Origin: Vicinamibacterales bacterium
GTDB lineage: Bacteria; Acidobacteriota; Vicinamibacteria; Vicinamibacterales; UBA8438
Direction: 5' to 3'
Length of the DNA: 64,000 bases
NCBI GenBank assembly: GCA_965263195.1
Contig: OZ253664.1
Location: forward strand, 3,893,045 to 3,957,044
Made by a program: the position numbers and the translations under genes. Every line of letters starts with the position of its first letter. Positions within the stretch are counted from its first letter, which is position 1. Below are positions 24,343-55,969 of the stretch, piece by piece. The notes under the pieces are model-generated. The model was not told the origin of the DNA. It saw only the letters and a list, made by a program, of their open reading frames with translations, and searched no databases.

Positions 24343-24694
24343 GGGGGCGACACGGCTTCGACGGGGGTGATGGATCCGCTGGATGCATGCCGAGCACCAT
24401 CGACTCGCTAATCCGATGGAACCTGATGTAACTGCGGACACGCAGCTGCCTCTGGCCGCGTAAAACGCGACCCGTCCACCCCGCCATCGCCCGCGTGACG
24501 GGATTGGGCGTCATTTAGTGGGCTGGCCTTCAGGCGCCGTCTCGACGCCTGCCGGCAAGACTTTTCGGGACTGGCTCCCGGTTTTTTTCGCCATCCTTCG
24601 ATGCCGGGAGCGAGACTTGCAAGGACGGACAAGCATGTAGATTCCGGCGGAAACGCACTTTCGGACGCGGGTTCGACTCCCGCCGCCTCCACCA
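24343..24694 (+). ncRNA. ssrA: tmRNA (ssrA), tag peptide ADTQLPLAA
   Basis: 5' GGGGGCGACACGGCTTCGACGGGG and 3' GGACGCGGGTTCGACTCCCGCCGCCTCCACCA form a tRNA-Ala-like acceptor with G3-U70. Resume codon GCG 24434 follows ...GUAACU, and the tag GCG GAC ACG CAG CTG CCT CTG GCC GCG TAA ends at 24463. Confidence 0.93.
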
Positions 24695-24700
24695 GCCTTC

Positions 24701-24723
24701 GCTCGCCGGTTTGCTAGGCGAGC
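24701..24723 (+). terminator. stem-loop just after ssrA (possible terminator or processing hairpin)
   Basis: GCTCGCC-ggtttgcta-GGCGAGC, a 7-bp stem 6 nt after CCA. No U-tract. Confidence 0.3.
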
Positions 24724-24804
24724 TACGGCTGGCGGGCCATAGCGCAACTATCAGCGAAGGCGGGCCCTGCGAGCTTCGGCAGGCGCCTTGCACGTTGCAC
24801 GTGC

Positions 24805-24996
24805 GTGGCCGGTCGCAACATCGTCTATCTCCTGCAGTCCGAGCAACACCCGCAGCAGCACTACGTTGGCCTGACGCAGAATCTGCGATGCCGGCTCGCC
24901 GCCCACAACGCCGGTCGGTCGACGCATACGGCGAAGCATCGACCGTGGCGTGTCGTTATCGCGGTCTGGTTCGGTGACGCGGCACACGCCCGCTGA
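24805..24996 (+). pseudogene. GIY-YIG nuclease family gene, 3'-truncated by an IS6 remnant
   Basis: (M)AGRNIVYLLQSEQHPQQHYVGLTQNLRCRLAAHNAGRSTHTAKHRPWRVV... is the small GIY-YIG pattern. The frame ends where IS6 homology starts (24992). Confidence 0.65.
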
Positions 24997-25312
24997 AGAT
25001 CTCCTCGCGCAGCGAGGCGTGACGGTCACCTACGAGACGATTCGGCAGTGGTGCCAGCGGTTCGGTCCGGTCTACGCCCGCCGGATGCGGCGCTTCACGT
25101 CGGCCGCCCACGTGCAACGGTTCGCGTCGGTACACGGAGTTGTGCAGAATCTCTTTCGAGTCGGGCGACATCTACTCCGGTCGAGGCACCACCGCGTGTT
25201 CCGAAAGCGGGCGTTCGTCGAATGGGATGCGGCGACGTGTGCGTGCTGAACGAGCGAGGGCGAACGACCTCGAGGCGGAGCAGCGCACTGTCCACACCAA
25301 GTTGACAGTGCC
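24992..25312 (+). mobile_element. IS6-family remnant (two joined internal/3' blocks, right IR intact)
   Basis: 24992-25080 matches 51612-51700 and 25084-25312 matches 52046-52240 of the fuller copy, implying about 345 bp deleted internally. It ends in ...AAGTTGACAGTGCC, reverse complement GGCACTGTCAAC (IS26-like IR). Confidence 0.85.
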
Positions 25313-25654
25313 GTGCCCAAAGCGATCGGTGATCAACTCGCCTCGGCTTACTATCGGGCTATGTTGCCGTGGGGGGCTGCGCGGTTCGACGACGAACACG
25401 AACTCGAGAACTTTCCCCATCTAGATGCGGTTCGGTTCGTCCGCTACGACGCACTCGATACACTTAGAGACAAGATTTCAGACCAGTCATCGCTCCTGCA
25501 GCATCGAGGTTTCGCCTTTGCATTGAAGCGAAATGAGCATGCCCGCAGTTTCATTCTCGCTGGGCGTGACACTGACGCGATCATCGACGCGATTGAGAGA
25601 CTTGGGAGCCTCAAGGCGCTGCGGGCCAACGGATTGCTTTTCCTCATCGAATAG
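25313..25654 (+). CDS. hypothetical protein, probably 5'-truncated at the IS6 end
   Basis: A 113-aa, more AT-rich ORF starting exactly at the IS6 boundary. Internal ATG at 25361. No family recognised. Confidence 0.4.
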   Translation: MPKAIGDQLASAYYRAMLPWGAARFDDEHELENFPHLDAVRFVRYDALDTLRDKISDQSSLLQHRGFAFALKRNEHARSFILAGRDTDAIIDAIERLGSLKALRANGLLFLIE

Positions 25655-25699
25655 CGTCACGTGCGCAGAGTGCTTGTACCACCGAGACAGTACGGCGTC

Positions 25700-26473
25700 C
25701 TACGGCCCTGCGGGTTCGACGTCGGCCATTTCGAGTACGCGTGCGGTAGGCGTTGCGGCCAGGTCCCCGGAGGACCGCCCGGAAGCGGCCATGGCTTGAT
25801 CCACGAGATAGGTGCCGGCCCGGAATCCTATCCATCTTCTGCCGTCCGGATGGCGATACATCCACTGGTTCAGATCCGCCGACCCAGGGAGGATCGCGAG
25901 CTCGGCCACCCAGGCCGCCACGTTGTCCGGGTAGTTGCTGAAGGGATAACGAGCCCCCGCATAGTCGCGCTCAAAGGCCGCTGCCATCCCTTCAGTGATC
26001 ACGTGATCCATCAAGGACACTCGGGGGATAGCCGCCTCCCTGACCAAGTGGTGCAATTCGTGAAACAGCATCGCGCGCAAATGCACCTCGGCGGTTGCAA
26101 GGACACCGCCGCCGCGGTTGGGATCCACTGACCAGTAGATCCTGTCCGGAGCGACGGCCGTGGCCGCAGCGTTGGTCATTGCACCCACGTTGTCGTCCGC
26201 ATCGACTCGGAGCGCGATTCTCTCGGGCAACGCGGTCAGGAGTTGCCTGACTTCGGCAATGGTGCCGCGGGTAATGCGCTCGATCGCACGGCGTTCTGCT
26301 ACGGAGAAGCGATGCTCGACCTCTCGATACTCGACGACCAATTCATCCGCCTTGCACGCCGCACACAACACGCCCAGCAGAATGCAGGCAAGCCTCGCCA
26401 AGGCTGAACGCGACGGGCTGCACCGGAGTCGTTTCCCTCCCCTTCGGCTAGCATAATTCCTATGGTTCAGCAA
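25700..26473 (-). CDS. putative lipoprotein zinc metalloprotease (HExxH, DUF2268-like)
   Basis: 257 aa: lipobox-like LLGVLCAAC, HExxH motif in MLFHELHHLVRE. The family name is from memory. Confidence 0.65.
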   Translation of the reverse strand: MLNHRNYASRRGGKRLRCSPSRSALARLACILLGVLCAACKADELVVEYREVEHRFSVAERRAIERITRGTIAEVRQLLTALPERIALRVDADDNVGAMTNAAATAVAPDRIYWSVDPNRGGGVLATAEVHLRAMLFHELHHLVREAAIPRVSLMDHVITEGMAAAFERDYAGARYPFSNYPDNVAAWVAELAILPGSADLNQWMYRHPDGRRWIGFRAGTYLVDQAMAASGRSSGDLAATPTARVLEMADVEPAGP

Positions 26474-28546
26474 GGTCTGTCATCTGCTCCGGTACCGAAA
26501 AGGCGACTATCGCGTCCCCCAGTTCGAGCCCCGTAATCGCGTTGCCGCCGGCGAAGATCACGACGTACTGGCGCCCCTCCCACATGTAGGTCATAGGTGT
26601 CGCGAGGCCGGGAGCGGGCAGATCGCCCTTCCAGCGCTCCTCGCCCGTAGCGACGTCGAACGCTCGCAACGAGTTGTCCATCGTGGCCCCGATGAAGACG
26701 AGGCCACCGGCAGTTATGAGGGGGCCACCGAGATTCGGTGTGCCGAGCGCAATGCCAATCTCGCCCAATGTCTTGCGCCAGACGATCTCGCCGCTCGCGA
26801 GATCGACTCCGGCAAGCACACCCCAAGGCGGCGGGGTGCAGGGGATACCGAGTGGTGACATGAGCAGCTCGCGCTTCATGCCGAACGGTGCACCCGCCTG
26901 TGTCGACACCTCCTCGTCGGGGAACGCCTGCCGCACCGCATCGATCTCTTCGGCCGGAATGAGCTGGACGTGATGCGCGACACTGCTCATGTTGATCACG
27001 AGGAGGTTGCGCGTCGGATCGAACGCTGCGCGCCCCAGTTTGCGCCGCCGCCGGTAAAGGGATACAGGATGGTCCCCTGCTCCGACGGTGGCGTGAAGAG
27101 ACCCTCCGATCACGCGCTCGCGATTTGCTGGCGGCACGCGCGGCGATCGAACCAGGTGATGCCAAACGCGTCGTCTGGGGAGAGTCGGTTCGGTACGACA
27201 GGCGGCGTCACCGCAGGAAAAGGCTGGGTCGGAGAGAGCGCCTCCCCGGGCGTCCCAGTCTGATCGACCGGGCGTTCCTCGATCGGCAGAAATGGCTCGC
27301 CCGTCGCGCGGTCGAGGACGAAGACAAAGCCGGTCTTGGTGACTTGGGCAACCACGTCGTGCAGTTGGGCGTCTCGCCACACCGAGTACAAACCCGGCTG
27401 CGCCGGCACGTCGTAGTCCCAGATGTCGTGGTGCACGGTCTGAAAGCTCCACCGCAGCTCACCGGATGCCGCGTCGAGCGCCACGACGGCGTTCGCGTGA
27501 CGGTTGTCGCCAGGGCGCAGGCCACCGAAGAAGTCGGGACTGGGGCTTGTCGTCGGGACGAAGACCAACCCGCGGTGCTCGTCCACCGCCAGGGGCGCCC
27601 ACGCGTTTGCGTGGCCCTCGCGGGGCGGGTATGTTCCCTGCCAGCTTGTGATCGCCGGGTCGCCCGCGGTTCGCGGAATGGGATCCCACTCCCACCGTGG
27701 AGCGCCGCTTCACGCGTCGAAAGCGCGCACCGAGCCGACCGGCGCCGCTACGCGGGCGTTGTCGCCGATGGCCGACCCGACGACGACGGTGTCACCGACG
27801 ACGACCGGCGGCGACGTCATCTGGAACTCGCCGGGCCATAGCAACTCCATTCCCGGGTCGACGTGAACCTGGCCGTTCCTGCCGAAGGTGTCGCACGGCT
27901 GGCCCGTCGCCGCATCGACGGCAATCAACCGTGCGTCGTTCGTCCCCATGAAGATGCGGCTGGCGCACGCCGGCGAAGGGTGCGGATCGCGCCAATGGGT
28001 GACGCCACGGCACACGAACTGATTGGCGGGGCGCTGGTCGAGATCAATCTCCGGATCGAACCGCCAGCGCTGGCTGCCGTTCCCAGGGTCGAGCGCGATG
28101 ATCTCGTTGAAGGGCGTGCAGAAGACGAGCGAATCTTCGACCAGAATCGGCGTCGCCTGACCGGCGGACTGGTCCATCAGCTCGGCTTTGGCGGTTAGGT
28201 CCCCGGTCCGATATTCCCAGACCGGCATGAGCGCGGCGACGTTTTCGACGCTGATCTGGCTCGCTCGGCTGTACCGGTGTCCGCCCGCGTCACCGCCGTA
28301 ATGGGACCAGCCATGGCCAACGTCGATAGTGTGTGCCGGGCGGTCGGTCAGCCTGGCAACGCCATCGATGTCCAGTCCGTGAGCGCCAGCGGCGTACCAA
28401 ACCATCGAACCGCCGAGCAGCGAGGTGATAGCAAGCGCCGTGCACCCGATGGTGAGCCACAGCGCAACGCGTCGCAACGACAATTTATCCAGATCCAAGA
28501 AGGGTCGCCAGCCGATTCTAGCAGCCCGTGGCAGAAACCCGTCCAT
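26460..28546 (-). pseudogene. membrane-bound PQQ-dependent glucose/quinate-type dehydrogenase, inactivated
   Basis: Collinear with Gcd-type enzymes but broken by in-frame TGA 27710-27712 (AFDA*SGAPRWEWDP), in-frame TGA 27110-27112 (QQIASA*SEGLFTPPSEQGTILYP) and a 1-nt frameshift just after GGGANWG (about 27030-27040). Confidence 0.85.
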
Positions 28547-28620
28547 GTAGCCCCGACGGGAGAGCCTGAATCAAGCCAAAATGCAACGTAAAATAGACTG
28601 CGGTCCCAGGAAATGTCCAG

Positions 28621-29001
28621 CTAGAACGCGACCGCGCCGACCCGCAGCAGATTGGTCAGGTAGGCGACCGCGTTCGACGTGCGTCTCTTGAAGTAGAAGA
28701 CCCGTCCCTGCTCATGCTCGCTGACGTGATAGCACTCCCACCGCTCCCGTCCCATCGCATTGAGCCGTTCGTCCACGTCTCCCAGATCAGCGTGGGCCAC
28801 CTCGAGTGACGTGTATTCGATGGCCCAGAGAGCCTGGAGCTCTGCTGCCGACAGCTCGCGCACGTCGTTTGCCCTCGTTCGCGCGTCGTCCAGGATTCCC
28901 TGAGCACCCTCTCGCAACTCAGCCAACGGGTCCTGTCGGCATCCAACCGAGAGGACTGCGAGTGACACGCCGATTAGTATGATTCGCATCATCGCTTTCA
29001 T
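28621..29001 (-). CDS. hypothetical lipoprotein
   Basis: MKAMMRIILIGVSLAVLSVGC lipobox, 126 aa, more AT-rich than the flanks. The track ORF is extended 36 codons upstream. Confidence 0.6.
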   Translation of the reverse strand: MKAMMRIILIGVSLAVLSVGCRQDPLAELREGAQGILDDARTRANDVRELSAAELQALWAIEYTSLEVAHADLGDVDERLNAMGRERWECYHVSEHEQGRVFYFKRRTSNAVAYLTNLLRVGAVAF

Positions 29002-29138
29002 CCCTTTGTAATCGGTGACAGCGCGGGGCATCCCCCGCGCGGTTTCTCCGTCGTCTGAACGAGATCCATCCGCGCAAGCCGAACATTCAGCAGTGGGCTG
29101 GTGTCCCACTGGCCCACCCTCCAGGGTCTACACCGGCC

Positions 29139-30473
29139 CGCAATGCGAGCAGCAAGGCGTCGACGAGGGCATAGGCGCGGCCCTGGAGGCCGCGCGGCGT
29201 CCCGACGCCGAGCAGTTGCCGCATGAGCAGCCCGAGATTCAAGCCGCAGACCTGCAGGAGCAGGCGCTTGAGGATGTTGCCGTGTCCGCGCAGATGCACC
29301 CGGCGCATCCCTCCGGTGGCGTAGAGATGCGCATTGGGACGTTCGAGGCGTTCACCGCGCCGACGCAGCAGCCGCTTACCGCGTGCGCCGCGAATCCGTC
29401 GCCGGTTGGCATACACCGCGTCACGGGCGACGTGCTTCCCGCGCCAGTTGCGCCGGCCCCGGTCGGGCTCCGACACGTAGCTGCGGATCTCCACCGCGGC
29501 CAACGTGACCAGTGTCTGGTTGCTGTGGTAGCCCTTGTCGCAGACCAGCTCCGCGATGCCGGGCCCCGCCGGCAGCACCGCGTCGACCTGCTCGGCGGCG
29601 GTAACCAGCGTCTCGAGCATCGTCTGGGTATCGCCCGCATCCGCGTCCTGGACACTGACGCCGACCACCGCGCCCGTCTCCAGGTCCACGGCGCGGTTGG
29701 CCTTGTGCGCCAAGCGCGTCCTGCCGTCCTTCATCTTCGTGATCTTCGCGTCCGGGTCCTTGGGATGCGTCCAGTCGTCGTTGGACCCCTTCTTCGGGCG
29801 CTTGCGGTCGAAGCGGGCCAGTTCGGGCGCGCGTCGGCGTGGGGATGCCCGACGCCGCCGCCAGTCCGCGCAGGAACGTCTCGTAATCCGCGCCCGTATC
29901 CCGGCGTACGATGCTGCGAAGCGCCGCATTGGCTTCCAGCGTCGTCGCGTCGATGCCGACCGTCTTGCCCCCGACCAGGCCCGCGTCGGCCAGCCGCTGC
30001 AGCACCCAGGTGAAGACCGCCAGGTGCGTCTCGACGTCGATCCGACGCCGCGTGCGCGACACCGTCGAGTGGTCCGGCGGCGCCGCGTCGAGCGACACGT
30101 CGAGCAGCTGCCGCAGGCTCAGCGAATCGGCGGCCCGCCACGCAATCGCCCGTTCCGAGTCCAGCCCCTCGAAGTAGCCGAGCAGCAGCATCCGGAAGTA
30201 GCGGCCCGGCGCCAGACTCGGCCGACCGACCCCGTCGGCATAGAACTTGGCGCACTGCTGCTCGACGAAGGCGTCGAAGCCCGCCGCGTCGAGAACACGA
30301 TTCAGGCGTTCGTAAAACGGATGGCCCGCGCTGCGCGGCAGGTCCGAACTGGACACCCACATCGACGGCTGCCGCCCGCAACGGCGGCGCTTGCCCATTG
30401 CCATGGAAGGAAGTGTAGTACGTCAGATCGACCCTGTCGATCCCTATCCCGGACTTTCACCACAGGCTGCTAG
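29139..30473 (-). mobile_element. IS5/IS1182-like insertion sequence, copy 1 (left 142 bp missing)
   Basis: Near-identical to 34086-35420 (constant offset 4947). It keeps the ...CCACAGGCTGCTAG end but lacks the other IR. The transposase lies in two frames (29421-30404 N-part, 29087-29929 C-part). Confidence 0.88.
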
Positions 30474-30475
30474 AA

Positions 30476-31165
30476 ATCACACCGGAGGATTTCGCGGCGT
30501 ACCTGTACGGCGTATTGGCTCATCCGGCATTTACTGAGCACTATTCCGAACAACTGGAGACACGCGAGCTGCGCGTGCCGATGACCAGGGACCGTGGTCT
30601 GTTCGAGGCATTGCGCGAGGCGGGAGTGAAGCTGCTCCGCCTGCACAGCTACGGTGAACGTTTCGTTCCCGATGGCGAACCACGAGGCCGTGTTACGACC
30701 GGATCGGCCAGGTGCACGAAGGCCGTTCCCGGCAATGCGGACGATTACCCGGAGTCGTTCCGGCACGACGCCGAGGCGCGAACCCTGCACGTGGGCCGAG
30801 GCGAGTTCGCCGGTGTCGCACCGGAGGTATTCAAGTTCGAGGTATCGGGCCTAAAGGTCGTGCAGTCGTGGCTCCGATACCGAATGAAGAACGGCGCGGG
30901 CCGGAAGTCCTCACCCCTCAACAACATCCATCCCGAGCGGTGGACCTCGGAGTTCACCACCGAATTACTCGAACTGCTCTGGGTGCTCGAAACCACCGTC
31001 GAGGGTTACCCGAAACAGCAAGAACTGCTCGAAGCCGTCGTTGCTGGCGACTGCTTCCGGGCCGATGAACTCCCCGTCGTCCCGGACGAAATGCGCAAGC
31101 TGCCGAGAGCGCAGGTCTCCAGAAACCGCCAACTGCCGCGCCATGCCGGACAGCTCGCGCTTTAG
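30476..31165 (+). pseudogene. C-terminal fragment of a type ISP / N6-methyltransferase-type restriction-modification enzyme, 5'-truncated by the IS
   Basis: ITPEDFAAYLYGVLAHPAFTEHYSEQLETRELRVPMT...LKVVQSWLRYRMKNGAGRK... begins directly at the IS end. This pattern is typical of type ISP C-terminal domains (from memory). Confidence 0.65.
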
Positions 31166-31210
31166 CCGGTCCTGAGGAACCGGAGGATCGCCTTCCAGCG
31201 CCTCGCGGAC

Positions 31211-31219
31211 TGCTAGAAT
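31211..31219 (+). promoter_or_regulatory. extended -10-like element TGCTAGAAT sharing an 11-mer with the ssrA promoter
   Basis: ACTGCTAGAAT..CCTACCG here versus ACTGCTAGAAT...CCTACCG upstream of ssrA (24311-24334). No annotated + strand gene lies downstream. Confidence 0.25.
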
Positions 31220-31332
31220 TCCTACCGATAAGTCCCGTTATCGTGAAAGATTCACTCGCCCAGATCGCCCCGGCCGACACCGCGATCGGCCGGCCGAGCG
31301 CGACCGCTGAACGATACTAGCCCGCCCGCCAG

Positions 31333-31400
31333 GTGATCCCGCCGCCCGTGCTCGGACCCTTCGAAGTCATCTGCGCGAACGGCCCGGGCGGCGGGATCAC
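31333..31400. repeat. perfect 16-bp inverted repeat with 36-nt spacer
   Basis: GTGATCCCGCCGCCCG (31333-31348) and CGGGCGGCGGGATCAC (31385-31400). Confidence 0.9.
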
Positions 31401-31530
31401 GTGGAAGCCGCCAGCGGGCCAGGGTACGAAGCGACCCCGCCGCCCTTGTTGTCACGGCTTCTGAAGTGGTCCGACGTTATACGCCCGGGCGGCGGAGTCA
31501 GGTCGAAGATAGCAGACCGGGCCGGGCCGC

Positions 31531-31908
31531 CTACGATGGCGGATTCCACGCCCGCGGCCAGACTTTTGGGGATGGCTTCGGCGCCGGCGGCGGCGCGTCG
31601 TTCCAGGTTTCGGCCATTAGCGCCAGCAACACGTGCGCCCGACGCAGCCGGGCGATATCGGCCTTGGTCAGCGCGACCGTGGTGTACGGCATGCCGGACC
31701 CGGACACCCACGGCGCAGCGGCGAAGCGTTCGCTCCCGATTTCAACGAAGCCGCCCGCCGCCGCGTCGGCTTTCAGGATGACTTCGCGCGCGTCGATATC
31801 GATCGCGCATGGGCTGAACAGGTCGCCACCGTTCAGCACCGCCTTGTCGCACAGGAACGGCCGGTCGTAGAACTTGCCGCCGCCCGGCGTCTTCTTCGTT
31901 GAAGTCAT
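31531..31908 (-). CDS. hypothetical protein (phage/integrative-element-like operon)
   Basis: MTSTKKTPGGGKFYDRPFLCDKAVLNGGDLF.... Start ATG 31908 is preferred, though the track ORF extends to 32043. The C-terminal Pro-rich tail is of doubtful frame. Confidence 0.45.
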   Translation of the reverse strand: MTSTKKTPGGGKFYDRPFLCDKAVLNGGDLFSPCAIDIDAREVILKADAAAGGFVEIGSERFAAAPWVSGSGMPYTTVALTKADIARLRRAHVLLALMAETWNDAPPPAPKPSPKVWPRAWNPPS

Positions 31909-32155
31909 CGCTCTACACGGCCGGGCGGCGGCACGGTGTAAGGCGGCGGGCCGCTCGTACTTCTCAGAGGTTGTCTGCTTCGTCTGCTCCCGCTCATGCT
32001 CGATGCTTCCCGATACATATACCCCGGCCCGCCGTGCCACCATCCCCGCGCCGGCCGGCCGCTGCCACGTAGGCGCACATCACTTCGCCAGCTCAGCCGT
32101 CGTCATGCACTTCGGGTTGCTCGGCTCGCTCACGTCGTATCCCCTTTCAGCGCGG

Positions 32156-32338
32156 CTAATCGTCGTGCCAGTCCTCGCACCAGTCGTTTTTCTTGGTCTC
32201 CGGCCACGCGCTCGTCGCGTCCAGCAGCGGTTGCGGCGGGTGCAGGCGGCACTCTCCCATGTTGGGACTTTGGTAGTTGGATGGGGACTCCTTCCAGGCG
32301 TTGCACGTTGCGCAAACTCGCCCTTTTGCTCGGCTCAT
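32156..32338 (-). CDS. small Cys/Trp-rich phage-type hypothetical protein
   Basis: 60 aa, MSRAKGRVCATCNAWKESPSNYQSPNMGECRLHPPQP...DWCEDWHDD. Confidence 0.55.
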   Translation of the reverse strand: MSRAKGRVCATCNAWKESPSNYQSPNMGECRLHPPQPLLDATSAWPETKKNDWCEDWHDD

Positions 32339-32393
32339 GGCTTCTCTCCTTGTTCCGCCAGCTGGCGCTCGCGCGTTCGGTTGGTTCCCATAC

Positions 32394-32627
32394 TCAGTGC
32401 ACCGTTGGTTCGCCTCGCAGGTCAGCCGGCACGGTGTCGAGCAGCTCGCGGCGGCAGGCGTCGAGAATCTTCGCGCCGCGCGGTTCGGGCCATGTGTCGG
32501 CTACGTTCCAGATCGCGCCGACAAGCGCCGCCATGACGATACGGCACTTCACCTCATCCGCGCCGCTGTGCTCTGCCACGTAGGCGCAGATGGCGTCCGT
32601 CAGGTCGTTCAGTGTTGGGGCCTTCAT
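32394..32627 (-). CDS. hypothetical protein
   Basis: 77 aa. Its ATG overlaps the upstream gene's stop (ATGA). Confidence 0.55.
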   Translation of the reverse strand: MKAPTLNDLTDAICAYVAEHSGADEVKCRIVMAALVGAIWNVADTWPEPRGAKILDACRRELLDTVPADLRGEPTVH

Positions 32628-32812
32628 GGCGTCTCCTCGCTGCGCTGCTGCGCCTTGCGTCGGATCACGTCGGCCAGGTGCGGCTCCCAGATGCGAATTT
32701 CCGCCGACGTCATCTGGGCCATCATGTCCAGCGCCAGGGACTGAATCTCATCCTCGGTCATGTTCGGGTGGATGCGGCCGCGGTCGATCTTGATCATCCT
32801 CGATGCGCTCAT
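32624..32812 (-). CDS. hypothetical protein
   Basis: MSASRMIKIDRGRIHPNMTEDEIQSLALDMMAQMTSAEIRIWEPHLADVIRRKAQQRSEETP. ATGA overlaps at both ends. Confidence 0.5.
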   Translation of the reverse strand: MSASRMIKIDRGRIHPNMTEDEIQSLALDMMAQMTSAEIRIWEPHLADVIRRKAQQRSEETP

Positions 32813-33114
32813 GGCGTCTCTCCCACCGCGGCGTCGTGGGCCGCGTTCAACTGCGCCACGTCTACCCCGAGATCCGCGGCCATCTTCCGGGCTATCGTCG
32901 GCGACCACTTCTCGCGGCGCTTGCTCCGGACGCTTGGCGGGCACTGCTCGCAGGCTCGGTGGCCGCGGGTCCGGCTGCCGGTGCGGTCCGGACCGTTGCC
33001 GGCAGCGCACGGCTGCGCCGTTGCTGCGATACTGGTCCAGCCGGCGCGCTTCCCGCCGGGCCACAACCGCCCGTCTTCGGCCGGCAGCCCCGGCAGCCGA
33101 GCCTGCCTTCCCAT
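32809..33114 (-). CDS. hypothetical small DNA-binding-like protein
   Basis: ATG 33114. The C-terminus ...RREKWSPTIARKMAADLGVDVAQLNAAHDAAV looks HTH-like. The track ORF to 33588 is antisense to a better + strand gene. Confidence 0.4.
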   Translation of the reverse strand: MGRQARLPGLPAEDGRLWPGGKRAGWTSIAATAQPCAAGNGPDRTGSRTRGHRACEQCPPSVRSKRREKWSPTIARKMAADLGVDVAQLNAAHDAAVGETP

Positions 33115-33153
33115 TATCGTGAATGATTCGGGAGACAGAGAGGGCGCGCGCCC

Positions 33154-33495
33154 ATGACCAACGGGCCGGCGATCGTCATCAAAGGGAAGTGTTACTTTTG
33201 GCCCGGCGGACTTCGAACCCTGACGCCGCTCGACCCCCACCGGGAACCCAACAGTCAGACTTTCTGGTTCAGTGTGCGGCTTGAGCCGGGGAACAAGGAA
33301 GTGTTTTTTCGGATCGCTTTGGAAGCGATCCAGCGGATGCCGGAGAACACGCCCCAGGGGCGCGGCAAGCACCTTGTAGAACGGCTGATCGCCTGGATCA
33401 AAGAGAGCCCAGACCATCAGTTGGAGGATCTCAACGACTTCCAGGTCTACGTCTCGGACGCCGGCGATACGAGGGTAGAACCTTACGATGGCTGA
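33154..33495 (+). CDS. hypothetical protein upstream of the recombinase remnant
   Basis: 113 aa with balanced composition (MTNGPAIVIKGKCYFWPGG...). Its stop overlaps the next ATG (ATGgcTGA). Confidence 0.55.
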   Translation: MTNGPAIVIKGKCYFWPGGLRTLTPLDPHREPNSQTFWFSVRLEPGNKEVFFRIALEAIQRMPENTPQGRGKHLVERLIAWIKESPDHQLEDLNDFQVYVSDAGDTRVEPYDG

Positions 33496-33880
33496 TTCGG
33501 GTGCCGTGGTCGTGCCGGCGGAGATGGCCATCGGCCGCCCCACGGCGACCGCGCGCCGCCTGGTCAACGCGTCGATGAACGACAACACCCGCCGCGCTTA
33601 CGCCTGCGCCCTGGGCTAGCTCGCCGGCCTCCGGCTCGATGACGCGGCCCTGGCAGCCTACCTCGCCGAGCTCCACGACGCCGGCCGCGCCGCCTCGAGC
33701 GCCGCGATGGCGGTCGCCGCGGCGCGGTTCCGGGCCAAGCTGGCCGGCCAGAAGGACCCCGCCGCCGCGCGGACCGCCCGAGTGCTCGCCGGCTACCGGC
33801 GAACCGCCAGCGATCGCGGCCAGGCCAGCTCGTTCAGCGCCGCGGCCGCCGTCGTCGATGCCGCCGCGATGGGGCTAGTA
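33488..33880 (+). pseudogene. tyrosine recombinase/integrase, N-terminal SAM-like domain only, with an in-frame TAG
   Basis: ...SMNDNTRRAYACALG*LAGLRLDDAALAAYLAELHDAGRAASSAAMAVAAARFRAKLAG...VLAGYRRTASDRGQA. TAG at 33617-33619. The catalytic domain is absent and homology stops before the IS at 33944. Confidence 0.7.
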
Positions 33881-33943
33881 TTAAGGTTTGAACTTCTACG
33901 GTTCCTACGACCCGACCAGCGACGCAGACCGGAAACTTCACCG

Positions 33944-35351
33944 CTAGCAGCCTGTGGCAGAACTGCCTTCTTGCAGCCCTGACAGAATGTGTGAATGAGT
34001 CGGCGTCATCGGGCGAATCCACGATGGAGCGGTCCAATTTTCCGACAGGAGTGCCGCTGAGCGCGATACGAGGCCCCAGAAGCGGCGCAATGCGAGCAGC
34101 AAGGCGTCGACGAGGGCATAGGCGCGGCCCTGGAGGCCGCGCGGCGTCCCGACGCGGAGCAGTTGCCGCATGAGCAGCCCGAGATTCAAGCCGCAGACCT
34201 GCAGGAGCAGGCGCTTGAGGATGTTGCCGTGTCCGCGCAGATGCACCCGGCGCATCCCTCCGGTGGCGTAGAGATGCGCATTGGGACGTTCGAGGCGTTC
34301 ACCGCGCCGACGCAGCAGCCGCTTACCGCGTGCGCCGCGAATCCGTCGCCGGTTGGCATACACCGCGTCACGGGCGACGTGCTTCCCGCGCCAGTTGCGC
34401 CGGCCCCGGTCGGGCTCCGACACGTAGCTGCGGATCTCCACCGCGGCCAACGTGACCAGTGTCTGGTTGCTGTGGTAGCCCTTGTCGCAGACCAGCTCCG
34501 CGATGCCGGGCCCCGCCGGCAGCACCGCGTCGACCTGCTCGGCGGCGGTAACCAGCGTCTCGAGCATCGTCTGGGTATCGCCCGCATCCGCGTCCTGGAC
34601 ACTGACGCCGACCACCGCGCCCGTCTCCAGGTCCACGGCGCGGTTGGCCTTGTGCGCCAAGCGCGTCCTGCCGTCCTTCATCTTCGTGATCTTCGCGTCC
34701 GGGTCCTTGGGATGCGTCCAGTCGTCGTTGGACCCCTTCTTCGGGCGCTTGCGGTCGAAGCGGGCCAGTTCGGGCGCGCGTCGGCGTGGGGATGCCCGAC
34801 GCCGCCGCCAGTCCGCGCAGGAACGTCTCGTAATCCGCGCCCGTATCCCGGCGTACGATGCTGCGAAGCGCCGCATTGGCTTCCAGCGTCGTCGCGTCGA
34901 TGCCGACCGTCTTGCCCCCGACCAGGCCCGCGTCGGCCAGCCGCTGCAGCACCCAGGTGAAGACCGCCAGGTGCGTCTCGACGTCGATCCGACGCCGCGT
35001 GCGCGACACCGTCGAGTGGTCCGGCGGCGCCGCGTCGAGCGACACGTCGAGCAGCTGCCGCAGGCTCAGCGAATCGGCGGCCCGCCACGCAATCGCCCGT
35101 TCCGAGTCCAGCCCCTCGAAGTAGCCGAGCAGCAGCATCCGGAAGTAGCGGCCCGGCGCCAGACTCGGCCGACCGACCCCGTCGGCATAGAACTTGGCGC
35201 ACTGCTCCTCGACGAAGGCGTCGAAGCCCGCCGCGTCGAGAACACGATTCAGGCGTTCGTAAAACGGATGGCCCGCGCTGCGCGGCAGGTCCGAACTGGA
35301 CACCCACATCGACGGCTGCCGCCAGCCACGGCGGCGCTTGCCCATTGCCAT
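33944..35351 (-). CDS. DDE transposase of the IS5/IS1182-like element, encoded in two frames
   Basis: N-part (35351 down): ...HPFYERLNRVLDAAGFDAF...RPSLAPGRYFRMLLLGYFEGLDSERA.... C-part: ...ELARFDRKRPKKGSNDDWTHPKDPDAKITKMKDGRTRLAHK...DKGYHS.... The frames join at a C/G run (34772-34774). The stop lies in the terminal CTAG. Confidence 0.8.
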
Positions 35352-35420
35352 GGAAGGAAGTGTAGTACGGCAGATCGACCCTGTCGATCCCTATCCCGGA
35401 CTTTCACCACAGGCTGCTAG
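33944..35420 (-). mobile_element. IS5/IS1182-like insertion sequence, copy 2 (complete, 1477 bp)
   Basis: Terminal inverted repeats CTAGCAGCCTGTGG (33944-33957) and CCACAGGCTGCTAG (35407-35420). Confidence 0.88.
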
Positions 35421-35570
35421 GCAACGACGGTGGTGAACACATTACCTAAGTTATGCCAAGCCTTAAGCACCGCCTACTGATATCAGGCATCTACACGATC
35501 TTCGTAGGCTTCATTCTTGGATGGGTGAGGCGCCCCCAGTTTTCTTGGACACGGATTAAGGGAGAATCCG

Positions 35571-36008
35571 ATGTCAAAGGAGGTGGGGGGCATGGTTCAG
35601 TCGAGGAGGGTGCAGGGAGCGGGGTCGGCGCGGACGGAGGGAGCCCGGAGGGCGAGCGGAGTCGGCGCCGACGGCGCGGCGGTTGGGGCGGGGGCCTTGG
35701 CGCCCGGCCAGCGGTGGAGCGCGAGCCGGAAACGGGACGTGGTGTTGCGGCTGCTGCGCGGCGAGTCGCTGGAGATGGTCTCGCGTGAAGTCGGGGTAGA
35801 GCTCTATCGCCTGGAGGCGTGGCAGGCGCGGGCGCTGGCCGGTCTCGAGCTCGGTCTGAAGGCGCAGGCCGGTGAGCCGCTGGCCGCCGAGCTGGATGCC
35901 GCCAAGCGCCACATTGGCGAGCTGTCGATGGAGATTGAGCTGTTGCGGGAGCGTGCCCGCGCAGCGGAGTGTCGCCTCCCTTTAGCGACGCGGAGGTCGC
36001 GACGATGA
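35571..36008 (+). CDS. IS orfA (HTH/leucine-zipper transposase N-terminal protein)
   Basis: 145 aa, ...RKRDVVLRLLRGESLEMVSREVGVELYRLEAWQARAL...IGELSMEIELLRER.... Confidence 0.85.
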   Translation: MSKEVGGMVQSRRVQGAGSARTEGARRASGVGADGAAVGAGALAPGQRWSASRKRDVVLRLLRGESLEMVSREVGVELYRLEAWQARALAGLELGLKAQAGEPLAAELDAAKRHIGELSMEIELLRERARAAECRLPLATRRSRR

Positions 36009-36904
36009 GCCGAGCGACCTCCGCGACGACGGGGCGGCGCTATGGTCTCAAGCGGGTGTGTCGAACGTGGGATAGGTCGCGCTCGGCGCTCTACGCGCGG
36101 CGGGCTTGTTTGCGGCGCCCAGAGCGGGGTGATGGCCCGGCGCGCCGCGGGCCGACGCCCGCACTGTCGGATGCGCAGCTGCTGGCGGCCATTCGCACTG
36201 ACCTGGCCCGCTCACCGTTCCAGGGCGAGGGCCATCGCAAGGTCCACGCGCGGCTGCGGATCCTCGACCGGATCCGAGTCTCCCGGACGCGGGTGTTGCG
36301 CGTGATGCGCACGCAGGGGCTGCTCTCGCCGCACCGCGGGCGGCAGGGTGAGATGAAAGCGCACGAGGGGACGATTGTCACCTCGGCGCCCGACGTCATG
36401 TGGGGTACCGACGGCGTGCGGGTGTTCACGGCGGAGGACGGCTGGGTCTGGACCTTCGCGGCGGTGGACCACTGGAACGCCGAGTGCGTGGGCTGGCATG
36501 TGTGCAAGGTGGGGAACCGTTTTGCCGCCCTCGAGCCGATCGCGCAAGGGCTCGGGCGACACTACGGCTCGGTCGAGGCGGACGTGGCCCGCGGGCTGGC
36601 GCTACGGATGGATCACGGCAGCCAGTATCTCTCGGACCACTTTCTCAACCAGCTCCGCTACTGGGGCATCCACCCCAGCTTCGGCTTCGTTGAAGAGCCG
36701 GAAACCAACGGCGTCGTCGAGCGCTGGAATCGCACGCTCAAGGAGCAAGCCATCTACGGCCGGGTCTTTCGAAACCTCGCCGAGGTGCGCGCCGCCGTCG
36801 CCGAGTTCGTCGAACGCTACAACCAGTGCTGGCGCCTCGAGAAGCTGGCGTATCGCACGCCGCTCGAAGCGCGCGAGGAATACGAGCTGCGCCATGCCGC
36901 GTAG
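35969..36904 (+). CDS. IS orfB (rve/DDE integrase-core transposase), expressed as an OrfAB fusion by -1 frameshifting
   Basis: ...WGTDGVRVFTAEDGWVWTFAAVDHWNAECVGW...MDHGSQYLSDHF...PETNGVVERWNRTLKEQ.... The -1 frame is entered at the slippery site. Confidence 0.88.
   Translation: MSPPFSDAEVATMSRATSATTGRRYGLKRVCRTWDRSRSALYARRACLRRPERGDGPARRGPTPALSDAQLLAAIRTDLARSPFQGEGHRKVHARLRILDRIRVSRTRVLRVMRTQGLLSPHRGRQGEMKAHEGTIVTSAPDVMWGTDGVRVFTAEDGWVWTFAAVDHWNAECVGWHVCKVGNRFAALEPIAQGLGRHYGSVEADVARGLALRMDHGSQYLSDHFLNQLRYWGIHPSFGFVEEPETNGVVERWNRTLKEQAIYGRVFRNLAEVRAAVAEFVERYNQCWRLEKLAYRTPLEAREEYELRHAA
35978..36025 (+). promoter_or_regulatory. programmed -1 ribosomal frameshift signal (slippery heptamer plus stem-loop)
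   Basis: C CCT TTA (35978-35984) is X XXY YYZ in the orfA frame. 4 nt later a perfect 12-bp stem forms: CGCGGAGGTCGC (35989-36000) / GCGACCTCCGCG (36014-36025), with a 13-nt loop. Confidence 0.8.
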
Positions 36905-37087
36905 CGCAAACGTGTGTCCAAGAAACCGGGTGCGGTACACATTCTTGGATGGGCTGAAAGCTTCACTTCTGGATGGCATTTCCTAAAGCTGCTCGGAATC
37001 ATCGCTCTACTGCCGATGTTTAAAGCGTTTGTCCCCGGCAATGAGCACATCTTCTTCACCCATGGCTACTGGCGACGTCTGTTCGGC

Positions 37088-37929
37088 CTAACCCTGGACT
37101 AATTTCCGAGCGGTTTTGGCTGGGGTGTTGAGACGCCGGCCGCGGCCATCCGCCGCCGTCGAAACTTCAAGCATCGAGCCATCCCGGCAGCGGTAGCGGT
37201 CCCATGCGCCGCCCCGCGAGCGGCCGAGGTAGCGCACGACGCCATCGAGCCGGATCGGCTCGTTCAGCGCTTCAACCTCCCGACACCAAGCGGCCAGGGT
37301 ATCGGCCGCCGACTGGACCCGACGCCTACCCGGCACGAACCGGACCCCCGCCGCCCATATCCTCAACCAGCCAGCGCCACACCGCCCGGCCGCAGCGCCG
37401 CACAGCGACCCGCAAAACGCCGGCAGTCTGACGCCGCCGCAGGAGCTCCACCGGCACCGCCGACGCCGACCCGCGCAGGTCCTCACCCGCCGCGGCCCGT
37501 TCCACCCACGGCCGCAGCCACTCCGCATCATCGCCGGCCGACTCGCCCAACCACTCAGCCGGCAGCGCCCGCAACCGCCGCAGGACCGCCACCCGGCCCA
37601 CGTCAGCCGGCGCGCACTCTGGATACCGTCTCAGCACGCGCAGCGCCAACGGCACACCCAAATCAGCCGCTCGAGCATCGGCCCGCAACGCCCGCACCCA
37701 GGCCAGCGAGCGGCCCATCAGCCGACGTCGGCAGGGCCGGCGCGTAACGCGGCCCCACCGGCACCGGCCCGACCGGCGGCAGCGGTAGCCACGATACCCC
37801 CGCGGCCGGCACGACGACGACCGGCACATCCCGCAGCCCGGACACGTCGACGACCGGAGTCAACACCCGGTTATCCGGACCCGGCCCGCCGGCCGGCGAT
37901 GTCCCCTTGTTGCTCATGTTGTTGCTCAT
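37088..37929 (-). pseudogene. hypothetical gene(s), reading frame ambiguous or frameshifted
   Basis: Three overlapping minus-strand ORFs in different frames each hold protein-like stretches: MSNNMSNKGTSPAGG... from ATG 37929, ...LAWVRALRADARAADLGVPLALRVLRRYPECAP..., and ...AADTLAAWCREVEALNEPIRLDGVVRY.... This cannot be resolved by eye in such GC-rich DNA. Confidence 0.3.
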
Positions 37930-38043
37930 GCTCGCCCCTCGTTCACCTGTCAAGCTCCCGCATCGGGGCCGCTGCCACCCCGCGCACCCCTATAGCCGCG
38001 TCATGGCCGCCGGGTCGGCCTGACTCACGCTTAGTTGCCCGAG

Positions 38044-38268
38044 CTAGGTTCCGTCCTTCATCAACATCTTGCAGAACAGCCTCACCACGTCGGCCATAGC
38101 ATGCTTGTACTCCTGGGACTTCTTGCGACCCTTGTACTCGACCTGCTTTTCCATAGCAGCAGCGGCCAGTTCGCGCTCCTGGGCTAGATCCTTCTTCCAA
38201 GCGAAATCCCTGAACTTATCGAGAACGATGTTGAGTGCATCTTTACAGCCTTGTTCTCTGTCAGTCAT
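38044..38268 (-). CDS. hypothetical small Lys/Glu-rich protein
   Basis: 74 aa, noticeably AT-richer. Preceded by a tandem 13-bp duplication containing the SD (ACAGGCGGAAGGT x2 on the coding strand, 38277-38302). Confidence 0.55.
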   Translation of the reverse strand: MTDREQGCKDALNIVLDKFRDFAWKKDLAQERELAAAAMEKQVEYKGRKKSQEYKHAMADVVRLFCKMLMKDGT

Positions 38269-38666
38269 GGTCGGTTACCTTCCGCCTGTACCTTCCGCCT
38301 GTGTGAACACCGAGTCTCAAATACGGCCTCGCCTTTCTAGGACGTTTCCGGGCCATTTGGATTCTACTGGTGGAGACCCCGCCACCATGGTGGCTCCCCC
38401 CCCACGCGCTGTGGGGATCGCGGCGTGACGTCCAAGGCGCCAGATGCGTCGTTTGGCCTGCGCCAGCGGACCGGCTGGGTGGTTTGGCCCCGAGGCCCTG
38501 CTGCTCACGCTGCTGACACGGCGGCAACAGACGCGGCAAGTTGCCGTAGGGCAGCTTGTGACGTAGCCCGGTCGCCGACGTGAACAAACCCGCCGCGCTT
38601 CTGCTGGTCGTCTGTGCTCATCGCCACCCGCCTTTCACGAGTTCCACCGAAGGATACTAGAGGTCG

Positions 38667-38921
38667 ATGCCAAAGGTTCGTGAGGCCATCAAGCTGATCG
38701 AAGCCGATGGCTGGCGGAAGGTGACCACGAAAGGCAGCCACCGTCAGTTCAAGTACCCGAGGAAGACCGGACGGGTCACGATTGCGGGACGGCTGTCGGA
38801 CGACTTGGCACCAGGCACGTACACCTCAAGAACGGCGCTGCGCGCGCCGTCGCCGCGGCGCCAGAGGGCCGCGTGGTTCCGCTCTCGCCGCAGGCGGTGG
38901 GGCTGCAGTTTACGGCCGTGA
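38667..38921 (+). pseudogene. HicA-family toxin with aberrant C-terminus, no adjacent HicB
   Basis: MPKVREAIKLIEADGWRKVTTKGSHRQFKYPRKTGRVTIAGRLSDDLAPGT... is canonical HicA. After PGT the frame runs into an Arg/Pro-rich tail instead of the short conserved end. Confidence 0.6.
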
Positions 38922-39005
38922 TGCTCGCGTATGAGGCAAGAACTCGTGCTGCGGTCCGACAGGATTTCCAATCGACATGTGTACCGGCACGCGGTACATT
39001 CCCTC

Positions 39006-39136
39006 ATGATCCGAAGGTTTCGTCATCGCGGACTGAAGGGGTACTGGAGCATTTCAGTTTCCGGCACAACTGGCGGGTGATCTTCCGCTTCGAAGATGGC
39101 GATGCCTACGACGTCGACCTGATCGACTACCACTAG
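39006..39136 (+). pseudogene. HigB (RelE/ParE-superfamily killer) remnant: internal deletion plus frameshift
   Basis: ATG 39006 gives [20 protein letters not shown], then a 2-nt shift into [22 protein letters not shown]. The middle roughly half of a normal HigB is missing. Confidence 0.75.
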
Positions 39137-39150
39137 CAGGAGGCAGCAAC

Positions 39151-39447
39151 ATGGCAATGAGCAATCCCCCGCATCCCGGACGCAGTATCCGCGAGAACTG
39201 CCTGGCCCCGCTCGGTTTGAACGTGACCGAAGCGGCGAAGGTGCTGGGTGTCGCCCGTCACACCCTCTCGCGGGTTCTGAACGGCCACGCGGCCATCTCC
39301 TCGGAGATGGCCATTCGGCTTGAGAAGGCGGGCTGGTCCAATGCCGAGTTCTGGCTGCGCCGACAGACCACTTGGGATCTCGTCCAGGCGCGCAAGGACG
39401 AAGACCGGATCAACGTCGAGCGATACCAGCCGCAGCCGTCGGTCTGA
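39151..39447 (+). CDS. higA: HigA-family antitoxin (XRE HTH)
   Basis: 98 aa, ...[55 protein letters not shown].... Intact. Confidence 0.85.
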
Positions 39448-39550
39448 AGTGATGCAGATCTCATGCTGCAACGGCCACGTGTCATCTCGTCAGAAGGCGG
39501 AGGGCACTCGCCGCAACGGGTCTTCAGGCAACAACACCTTATGGTCCTGT

Positions 39551-39778
39551 GGAGGCGGCGGGACCTGCACCCGCCGCCAGGCGGATCGGGAACAGGTTCC
39601 CGCCTCCTCCACTATTTCTCCACGACCCGGGTCGACTCCAGGGGACTCAGGTGGATTCCAGTAGACTCGGCGGCTGCCGACAAACGCTTGACGTCGAACG
39701 TGTTAGACCACAAACTACGCGTCGTCAGTCAGTTACCGAAACACGCTCGCACGGGTTCGACTCCCGCCGCCTCCACCA
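39551..39778 (+). repeat. ssrA 3'-end remnant block A, ending in a perfect 27-nt copy of the tmRNA 3' terminus (attR-like)
   Basis: 39752-39778 CGGGTTCGACTCCCGCCGCCTCCACCA equals 24668-24694. Upstream lie weaker look-alikes of the same end (39595-39614, 39628-39639) and of the ssrA GTAGA..CGGCGG motif (39659-39673). Confidence 0.85.
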
Positions 39779-39916
39779 CTAAGCCGTTTACGGTCAATGG
39801 CTTACGGTCGTCACTTCCCTGCGCGCGTACCCGTGTCGTCCCAATATGGCAGGTCGGCGGAAATCCGCCGCCGTCACCGATACCGCGGCCCACGGATCTG
39901 GTCGATCGCCGCTACT

Positions 39917-39935
39917 GCTTGCACATATTGCAAGC
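39917..39935. promoter_or_regulatory. palindromic operator-like site upstream of hicA/hicB
   Basis: GCTTGCA-catat-TGCAAGC, 17 nt upstream of the hicA-like ATG. Confidence 0.4.
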
Positions 39936-39951
39936 ATCCGTTAGCGTTCCA

Positions 39952-40538: not shown

Positions 40539-40597
40539 CAGGTCATGTGTGAACTCCGAAGGTTTTTCTGGCCGGTACGTGAGCTGGATGCCGGGCC

Positions 40598-41325: not shown

Positions 41326-41391
41326 AAGGATGAAACGGAATGAACTAGACTAGTCTGACGTCTAGTCAGTATTCGACGGAGGTAACGCTGC

Positions 41392-41652: not shown

Positions 41653-41656
41653 GCCC

Positions 41657-43521: not shown

Positions 43522-43553
43522 ACGTCGAGCGAACGCGCATGGCACGGCCAGGA

Positions 43554-55965: not shown

Positions 55966-55969
55966 GCTG

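Follow-up and report, generated by a model that had tools for sequence, protein, structure and literature searches.

A probable integrative-element remnant at the 3′ end of the tmRNA gene in a Vicinamibacterales bacterium

The stretch of 64,000 nucleotides (nt) analyzed here, referred to as the window, comes from a Vicinamibacterales bacterium (C1:3893045-3957044 of genome G000, which comprises 5.04 Mb in 5 contigs with 67.7% G+C). It harbors the transfer-messenger RNA (tmRNA) gene ssrA and, about 15 kb behind it, a second copy of the end of this gene. The segment 24695-39778 is likely the remnant of one or more integrative elements which entered the ssrA 3′ end by site-specific recombination through a tyrosine integrase. 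This view is carried by an exact repeat of the tmRNA terminus, an empty site in a sister species, a conserved arm in front of the distal repeat, the absence of an integrase and the decay of the interior. For comparison, ssrA was mapped in 30 relatives, and 26-55 kb around the gene were compared for the three closest (G003, G010 and G001). Order-wide comparisons covered 301 sampled Vicinamibacterales genomes.

The duplicated tmRNA end and its empty site

The tmRNA gene is full-length and of the one-piece type. ARAGORN and Rfam agree on this assignment (173.7 bits against a gathering score of 47, model positions 1-374), and since both end the gene at 24694, the first repeat copy is the ssrA 3′ end. 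The 27 nt CGGGTTCGACTCCCGCCGCCTCCACCA occur at 24668-24694 and again at 39752-39778 on the same strand, with 27 of 27 positions identical. Within the window there is no third site with up to three mismatches (100 dinucleotide shuffles predict 0 matches), and across the entire 5.04-Mb genome the 27-mer is found at these two sites only. The identity stops abruptly, with the adjoining base already different at both ends. A first-pass annotation, made from the sequence alone, had reported this repeat and the differing DNA outside it, and both observations hold. Its description of the extent was partly correct: the acceptor strand and CCA are included, but the T-arm portion reaches beyond the proposed 3′ half. 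Nearly the whole T-arm belongs to the repeat (its loop and 3′ strand, together with four of the five nt in the 5′ stem strand), and so do the acceptor 3′ strand, discriminator and CCA. Among the relatives, a duplicated ssrA 3′ end is a frequent finding.

The sister species G003 provides the uninterrupted arrangement. Its tmRNA is 93% identical to that of G000, and the 17 kb upstream of ssrA are syntenic with the window at 88-90% identity. Directly behind ssrA, G003 carries 108 nt which are 88-89% identical to 39779-39886 of the window, a precise empty site. Among the 301 genomes, only G000 and G003 show a full-length match to this segment, while seven other matches do not exceed 49 nt. Since the flank is as similar as the syntenic core and its match is limited to these two genomes, it represents the vertically inherited ssrA flank of a small lineage. 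Therefore, 24695-39751 is an insertion exactly at the tmRNA end, or else a segment precisely lost in G003. The DNA to the right of 39778 is thus an ssrA flank in a relative; the first-pass annotation would have counted the opposite against its own interpretation. The same gene order without the repeat, which it had likewise named as contrary, is seen in none of G003, G010 and G001. Together with the conserved arm described below, the empty site supports the proposal of attachment (att) sites attL and attR left by an element integrated into the tmRNA gene.

In the course of events that we propose, the attP site of the element would have included a duplicate of the terminal ~27 nt of ssrA. A crossover in the T-loop/acceptor region would then have regenerated ssrA at attL, and the original ssrA 3′ end would have been displaced to attR, behind an element arm of ~170 nt. 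The likely enzyme is a tyrosine integrase of ~367 amino acids (aa), as present in other Vicinamibacterales 35-130 nt behind ssrA and reading toward it. In G000, this integrase and the original left arm would subsequently have been lost. A GIY-YIG cassette, truncated by an IS6 remnant, now occupies the left end, and an IS3 element and two IS5-like copies break up the interior, which contains pseudogenes and fragments.

The arm of the distal repeat and the integrase family

The arm next to the distal repeat contains a terminator-like hairpin GGGAACAGGTTCCC, a paired CCTCCAC-N4-TCTCCAC motif, a pseudo-core GGGTCGACTCC and an AGTTA box. Arm-type sequences precede distal tmRNA-end repeats in at least eight other Vicinamibacterales genomes, and the conserved ~170-nt arm to the left of a distal core which characterizes this family of ssrA elements is also found here. 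We aligned 11 arms from at least eight genomes, each immediately to the left of a tmRNA- or tRNA-type T-loop core. The alignment retains, in this order, (T/C)CTCCAC-N4-TCTCCAC(G/A)AC, a T-loop-like pseudo-core GGGTCGA(C/T)TCC, GGAC-type repeats, the AGTTA box and the core GGGTTCGACTCCC. Judged by its sequence, this segment is a putative protein-binding att arm in which the paired (T/C)CTCCAC motifs and the pseudo-core may serve as integrase-binding sites.

The arm is not restricted to this genus. Copies with 92-97% identity occur in other genera and families (G032, G233, G265, G098 and G015), diverged forms are widespread in the order, and the segment 39028-39769, covering the HigA gene and the arm region, is 96.5% identical to G233. 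Near-identical arms also stand on other ends of the tDNA (tRNA or tmRNA gene) type, in G032 (…TCAAGTCCCTGCACCGGCACCA), in G233 (…CCCGGCGAACGCCA) and at 2.55 Mb of G000 itself (…CGCCGCCCCTACCA). A second copy of the ~190 nt preceding the distal repeat, 93% identical, is located within the window at 46180-46374. Further copies lie at C1:2552699-2552936 (minus strand) and at C1:3376892-3377089 (plus strand). The former runs into CGCCGCCCCTACCA, which resembles the tmRNA end except for two changes; the latter, without a core, abuts a truncated integrase beside tRNA-Asn.

A candidate for the responsible enzyme comes from the relatives. In G089, G171 and G296 (loci L060, L061 and L064), the opposite strand carries, 35-130 nt behind ssrA, an open reading frame (ORF) of 363-373 aa which reads toward the gene. 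The L060 protein is a tyrosine recombinase of ~367 aa (PF00589, 98 bits) with a SAM-like N-terminal domain. Its stop codon lies inside CCTCCACTATTTCTCCAC, a motif which the same island carries once more in its arm, ~125 nt to the left of the distal ssrA repeat. The region of the stop codon and the arm hence share the CCTCCAC-N4-TCTCCAC motif, and the attP of the family can therefore be reconstructed as motif, ~125 nt, core, 35-130 nt, and motif with the end of the integrase gene. The clade is present in 9 of 31 relatives and stands beside ssrA ends in L060, L061, L064, G028, G023 and G014. The complete arrangement of a ~367-aa integrase behind ssrA with the motif at its stop codon is present in L060, L061, L064 and G028; it is missing in G000.

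Indeed, the L060 clade is without a homologue in G000, where the best match is 34% identical over the catalytic domain only. No PF00589 catalytic domain is found in the 64-kb window, and the ORFs near both island ends encode only GIY-YIG, HicA and HigA proteins. The position of the integrase at attL is taken by a hairpin and a truncated GIY-YIG ORF of 63 codons, followed by the IS6 remnant. Since no cognate integrase is encoded anywhere in the genome, the island is presumably fixed in effect and would not excise by itself. Elsewhere in the genome, 52 matches to the tyrosine-recombinase catalytic domain are found, many of them at 3.8-4.08 Mb around the window. Three adjacent recombinases at 2617190-2619602 show the recombinase-in-trio layout.

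Contents and surroundings of the island

The ~15-kb interval is a mosaic of four insertion sequence (IS) copies or remnants, a pseudogene and gene fragments, and not demonstrably one element (Table 1). Its G+C content is 61-66% in parts, compared to 68-71% in the upstream core.

Table 1. Features of the ssrA region, with positions in the window
Feature	Position	Strand	Evidence
ssrA (tmRNA gene), probable integration target, tag ADTQLPLAA	24343..24694	+	ARAGORN; Rfam RF00023, 173.7 bits
attL core, probably the regenerated ssrA 3′ end (T-arm, acceptor 3′ strand, ACCA)	24668..24694	+	exact 27-nt repeat
Hairpin and small GIY-YIG nuclease gene (ORF 24805-24996), last ~24 codons missing	24695..24991	+	PF01541, 35.4 bits
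IS6-family remnant, internally deleted, truncates GIY-YIG gene	24992..25313	+	95-98% identity with segments of the IS6-like copy 51469-52280 (PF13610) and with further copies in the genome
DUF2268 gene (predicted Zn protease)	25700..26473	-	PF10026, 45.4 bits
PQQ-dependent dehydrogenase pseudogene, three frame-shifted pieces	26460..28546	-	PF01011 positions 1-197, 236-392 and 420-595 on three ORFs
IS5/IS1182-like copy A (DUF772 and DDE_Tnp_1), ~150 bp missing at one end	29139..30473	-	Pfam; 99.6% identical to copy B, many genomic copies
Type ISP restriction-modification C-terminal fragment, cut at IS end	30474..31165	+	PF18135 positions 201-342 of 342, 104.7 bits
Small-gene block, no assigned function	31256..33117	-	blastn, 98.6-99.6% identity with two stretches of the same chromosome, at 1.634 and at 1.644 Mb
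Tyrosine recombinase N-terminal stub, cut by IS copy B	33482..33823	+	tblastn, residues 18-135 of paralogue C1:2661122, 73.7% identity
IS5/IS1182-like copy B, full length	33934..35423	-	Pfam; blastn
IS3-family element (HTH and rve)	35522..36940	+	Pfam; at least 6 near-identical genomic copies, 99.4-99.8%
HicA-like ORF, toxin-antitoxin remnant	38667..38921	+	PF07927, 48.3 bits
HigA antitoxin, toxin-antitoxin remnant	39151..39447	+	TIGR02607, 93.1 bits
attR arm (P arm), ~170 nt, putative	39580..39751	+	alignment with the arms that precede distal ssrA repeats in at least 8 genomes
attR core, probably the displaced original ssrA 3′ end	39752..39778	+	exact repeat; right-flank junction identical to the ssrA/flank junction of G003
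Flank in common with G003, ancestral ssrA flank of the G000 and G003 lineage, with two TTACGGTC repeats	39779..39886	+	88-89% identity
Further mobile-type DNA	39887..46179	.	Pfam; not found in G003, G010, G001
HicB, within 39887..46179	40206..40538		Pfam
PIN, within 39887..46179	41630..42079		Pfam
DDE_3 fragment, within 39887..46179	42536..43234		Pfam
Fic/HTH	44361..45983	-	Pfam
Second arm copy in the window with partial core CGGGTTCGACTCCC, joined to foreign tDNA-like end TGCCCCCCC	46180..46366	+	93-95% identity to first arm

Most of the contents proposed in the first-pass annotation are borne out. Pfam and blastn confirm the IS copies, the GIY-YIG gene is truncated in comparison to G001, and the type ISP fragment, which sits between the two IS5-like copies, consists of the C-terminal part of the protein. 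Domain matches also identify HicA and HigA as toxin-antitoxin remnants. As proposed, only an N-terminal part of a tyrosine recombinase remains; this stub of 118 aa lies mid-island and belongs to another clade than the L060 integrase. In contrast, the suggested small phage-like genes find no support in Pfam or PHROG, and the block 31256-33117 has no match in either. Neither the 10 family-less ORFs compared with PHROG nor the Pfam search of the interval revealed phage structural or replication genes, and the interval does not qualify as a prophage. This mosaic of IS copies, a pseudogene, fragments and a recombinase stub, combined with the lack of an integrase, therefore points to an immobilized remnant, and the proposal that the island is immobilized and decaying fits the absence of both a catalytic domain in the window and a cognate clade in the genome. 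The PQQ-dependent dehydrogenase was also considered as a native neighbor of ssrA. This was rejected, as the copy near ssrA in G010 is only 30-47% identical and represents a paralogue.

A caveat to the interpretation of the right flank is that mobile DNA begins again beyond 39886 and continues up to ~53.96 kb. Near ssrA in G003, G010 and G001, no orthologue was found for any of the tested proteins encoded at 25.7-53.9 kb, and behind ssrA in G001 only the first ~300 nt of the island, with the hairpin and the GIY-YIG gene, recur. The first gene in common with the relatives is an alpha/beta hydrolase at 53962. It opens a block of hydrolase, periplasmic binding protein and methyltransferase genes (53962-58930; loci L015, L017 and L019 in the relatives) which lies 29.3 kb from ssrA in the window and 21.6 kb in G003, in the same orientation, but 5.3 kb in G010 and 1.8 kb in G001, inverted relative to the window. 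Given the lack of common genes up to ~53960 and the varied distances of this block, 24695 to ~53960 is a hypervariable region of ~29 kb.

Some further observations concern this neighborhood. A segment of ~1.5 kb (42879-44382) is 90-97% identical to C1:1734540-1737375, downstream of tRNA-Ala(ggc) at 1.7386 Mb, which indicates exchange between tDNA-linked islands within the genome. A gene for a BCCT-family transporter (52391-53883) is split into two overlapping ORFs, a frameshift pseudogene, and adjoins the IS6-family element at 51469-52280. Upstream of ssrA, the window carries a 6S RNA gene at 7489-7671 (Rfam RF00013, 72.6 bits).

The GIY-YIG gene at the left end deserves separate consideration. 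Its start lies 111 nt past the end of ssrA and is preceded by the hairpin GCTCGCC...GGCGAGC, and G001 carries a full copy of 87 aa behind its own ssrA. The two segments are 96% identical at the nucleotide level, whereas the ssrA genes of G000 and G001 themselves are 87-89% identical. The family of stand-alone GIY-YIG proteins of ~84 aa is present in 123 of the 301 genomes of the order. Its genes (loci L066-L165) follow a tRNA or tmRNA gene on the same strand, at a distance of 73-541 nt, at 64 of 80 loci across many phyla, with tRNA-Ala(ggc) and tmRNA accounting for 14 loci each, and mostly stand behind hairpins resembling repetitive extragenic palindromes (REP-like). Within the order, 15 of 20 loci are linked to a tRNA or tmRNA gene. 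Here, the full arrangement of a stand-alone gene behind hairpins, at a tRNA or tmRNA end and on the same strand, is displayed by 24695-24991 only. In G015, the gene is located behind the distal ssrA repeat, outside the repeat pair, and a downstream copy of the tRNA end accompanies only 3 of the 64 cassettes. Separate movement is suggested by the G015 layout, by the rarity of own repeats and by the segment being more similar between G000 and G001 than their ssrA genes. The GIY-YIG gene is thus probably a separate cassette targeting tRNA and tmRNA gene ends, neither cargo of the island nor the maker of the 27-nt repeat. Our literature search on GIY-YIG genes downstream of tRNA genes returned nothing relevant, and the sole GIY-YIG paper concerned Tsy transposons at comM.

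The notion of the cassette as a mini-island with its own repeats was also considered and dropped: it holds in G140, yet own repeats are confined to the three loci mentioned. In that genome (C1:947100-978500, loci L166 and L167), a direct repeat of 990 nt with 98.9% identity brackets an interval of 28 kb. Each unit comprises a tRNA-Leu 3′ end, a hairpin, the GIY-YIG gene and ~570 nt, and ends in a partial copy of the tRNA-Leu 3′ end. The 28-kb interval gave no tblastn match to 50 tyrosine-recombinase queries (E < 1e-6).

Alternative explanations and known systems

Several points weigh against a single, integrase-made island. A gain in G000 and a precise loss in G003 cannot be told apart, the outgroups G001 and G010 having different flanks. 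The interval may combine several elements. The attL side shows neither integrase nor arm motif, and G001 has hairpin and GIY-YIG gene behind ssrA but no distal repeat, so that the first ~300 nt may not be island DNA. Moreover, no intact element unites the exact arm subtype (the 92-97% copies, G032 and G233) with its integrase, and the link between the arm and the L060 integrase therefore rests on shared motifs and architecture. When an intact element of the same arm subtype was sought in G032, G233, G265 and G098 (20-40 kb of interior), no partner tDNA, second core or element was found.

Among the alternatives, a tandem array is possible, although we regard it as rather doubtful: 24695-39778 and 39779-46366 would be two successive ssrA islands, the second one older and ending in a degraded core at 46180-46366. 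In favor of an array, the two arms share 93-95% identity and CGGGTTCGACTCCC continues the second one in register, the DNA between the arms consists of the toxin-antitoxin, Fic and transposase debris typical of islands, and tandem ssrA arrays occur in the relatives (L059 and L063) and in the literature (PMC3146451). However, at the junction 46352 only CGGGTTCGACTCCC is common with ssrA. After these 15 nt the core changes to TGCCCCCCC, which is further from the ssrA end than a few point changes despite the 93% identical arm, and this end matches no tRNA or tmRNA gene of G000. In addition, the left end with its TTACGGTC repeats and the right arm are of different arm types. The segment 46201-46998, with arm, core and 630 nt of right flank, is present as one block with 95-96% identity in G265 and G098, members of another genus, and the junction was therefore probably imported ready-made. 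From the sequences, the simplest reading would be that this arm family crosses over in the T-loop and has used several tDNAs, and that the 46.3-kb junction arrived with foreign DNA. A candidate source tRNA gene (G098 or G265) would end in GGGTTCGACTCCCTGCCCCCC. It is very unlikely that the GIY-YIG cassette, and not an integrase, made the repeat before the remaining DNA was inserted. The cassette does lie exactly at the ssrA end, and G140 contains a GIY-YIG module of ~970 nt bracketed by tRNA-Leu 3′-end copies. Against this stand the rarity of such copies, the G015 gene outside the repeat pair and the G001 cassette without a repeat; furthermore, the arm also precedes the distal repeat at ssrA islets which lack a GIY-YIG gene (L059, L058 and L063). 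Least credible of all, arm and core (39541-39778) might encode a small RNA or represent a mini-tmRNA copy in decay. An end-to-end alignment of 39641-39778 to the Rfam tmRNA model (5′ GGGGACUCAGGUGGAUUC) reaches 21.6 bits, the fold has a z-score of -2.57, and there is a weak Acido-1 match of 26.3 bits. Both Rfam scores stay below their gathering thresholds (47 and 50 bits), the tmRNA look-alike at the 5′ side is not found in diverged arms, and the consensus fold shows almost no covariation (-0.26 kcal/mol), its long-range helix falling on near-invariant positions. Acido-1 had no match in 26 whole genomes, which is weak evidence of absence since 14 controls were likewise unmatched. With sub-threshold scores, no covariation and Acido-1 unmatched, albeit along with the controls, we rejected the RNA gene. 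The Acido-1 match itself lies in a double hairpin at the outer end of the arm (39554-39613, minus strand) and, at 26.3 bits against a gathering score of 50, is probably due to chance.

The remaining alternatives invoke mobilization in trans. The island could be a cis-mobilizable cassette with intact attL and attR, excised by an incoming ssrA-specific integrase, the ssrA locus being a platform for cassettes; we consider this unlikely. Both cores are perfect and the island lacks an integrase, as expected for att-flanked elements without integration and transfer genes. Arms stay very similar from genus to genus whereas their cargoes vary, several other arm-type ssrA islets lack an integrase and carry defense or toxin-antitoxin cargo (a TOTE primase-helicase, an AbiE-like pair, HigBA), the integrase clade is limited to 9 of 31 relatives, and the concept has been published for Dehalococcoides ssrA islands (PMC3146451). 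However, the left arm (the P′ side with the motif) is missing at attL, where the GIY-YIG gene and IS6 remnant stand instead, and half of the recombination substrate is therefore probably defective. To judge from the sequence, the missing motif argues against functional att sites. No cognate integrase is present in G000, and the heavy load of IS copies and pseudogenes suggests no selection for mobility. A broader version appears slightly less probable still. The ~170-nt arm and the T-loop core would constitute a modular recombination end, loosely like an integron attC, of integrase-less toxin-antitoxin and defense cassettes, shuffled in trans by one ssrA-linked tyrosine-integrase clade present in some genomes only and targeting ssrA as well as several tRNA genes with a GGGTTCGA(C)TCC T-loop. 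It is supported by the 92-97% identical arms on at least four tDNA-type 3′ ends, with unrelated cargo and in different genera and families. For the arm-type islets without integrase themselves, there is a small chance of mobilization in trans. Such integrase-less islets, bounded by tmRNA 3′ repeats, are found in the relatives at L059 (G079), L062 (G278), L063 (G187) and L066 (G015). Their cargo includes a TOTE archaeo-eukaryotic primase (AEP)-helicase of 953 aa, an AbiE-like nucleotidyltransferase, an AbiEi-domain protein and HigBA. In the islets of G079, G187 and G015, the same arm type precedes the distal repeat.

The remnant of an integrase-made island, our preferred explanation, can be compared to several known systems. 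Islands in tmRNA genes are reportedly the subject of 'Traffic at the tmRNA gene' by Williams in 2003. The cryptic prophage CP4-57 of E. coli and the VPI of V. cholerae are integrated at the 3′ end of ssrA, and the tmRNA terminus forms a direct repeat in both cases. Both elements retain P4-type integrases directly behind ssrA which read away from it, and they are able to excise. The present island shares the insertion at the ssrA 3′ end and the repeat, but has no integrase, and the related clade reads toward ssrA. The cis-mobilizable elements (CIMEs) of Streptococcus thermophilus, related to ICESt1 and ICESt3, are att-flanked deletion derivatives of integrative elements without recombination and transfer genes. 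Similarly, the island is att-flanked and without integrase; unlike in CIMEs, its attL side appears damaged. The CIME concept is cited in the work on Dehalococcoides (PMC3146451).

The textbook signature is that of the Islander-type islands in tRNA and tmRNA genes (Hudson, Lau & Williams 2015, PMC4383910). As in those islands, an intact target gene, regenerated at one end, faces a displaced 3′ fragment in the form of an exact direct repeat at the other, and the segment is absent from a close relative (G003) at the exact junction. Tyrosine-integrase chemistry (here in the relatives), foreign and variable content and the hot-spot character of ssrA are also common to both. In contrast, the inside holds the 118-aa stub of an unrelated recombinase in place of an integrase, the interior is an IS mosaic and the left arm is replaced. 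Since no integrase is contained, an Islander-style finder which requires one would probably not call this island.

The ssrA islands of Dehalococcoides are located behind ssrA and flanked by 20-bp repeats of the ssrA 3′ end, tandem ones included (McMurdie et al. 2011, PMC3146451). A conserved motif lies just upstream of each repeat, and the integration module stands beside attL on the reverse strand. Members without integrase were interpreted as cis-mobilizable or fixed, and the downstream region is hypervariable (PMC3146451). All these properties recur here: the location, the motif by the repeat, the reverse-strand module at attL (in the relatives), the integrase-less members and the hypervariable downstream region. 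However, the Dehalococcoides enzyme is a CcrB-like serine recombinase, whereas the relatives of G000 encode a tyrosine recombinase of ~367 aa. The present case further differs in its host phylum (Acidobacteriota), in the 27-nt repeat, in a far longer arm of ~170 nt and in the near-identical arms on several tDNA ends.

The island adds one further case to the tDNA islands; this type is well known and the case is ordinary. Nevertheless, it documents ssrA as an integration hot spot in the Vicinamibacterales, a little-studied order of soil acidobacteria. The att arm and the likely integrase clade identified here should help to annotate islands which integrase-dependent finders miss. The cassette at the ssrA end is one more case of a nuclease family at tRNA and tmRNA ends which seems undescribed in the literature searched. 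Lastly, if the integrase-less islets were indeed mobilized in trans, they would provide a route for the exchange of defense genes.

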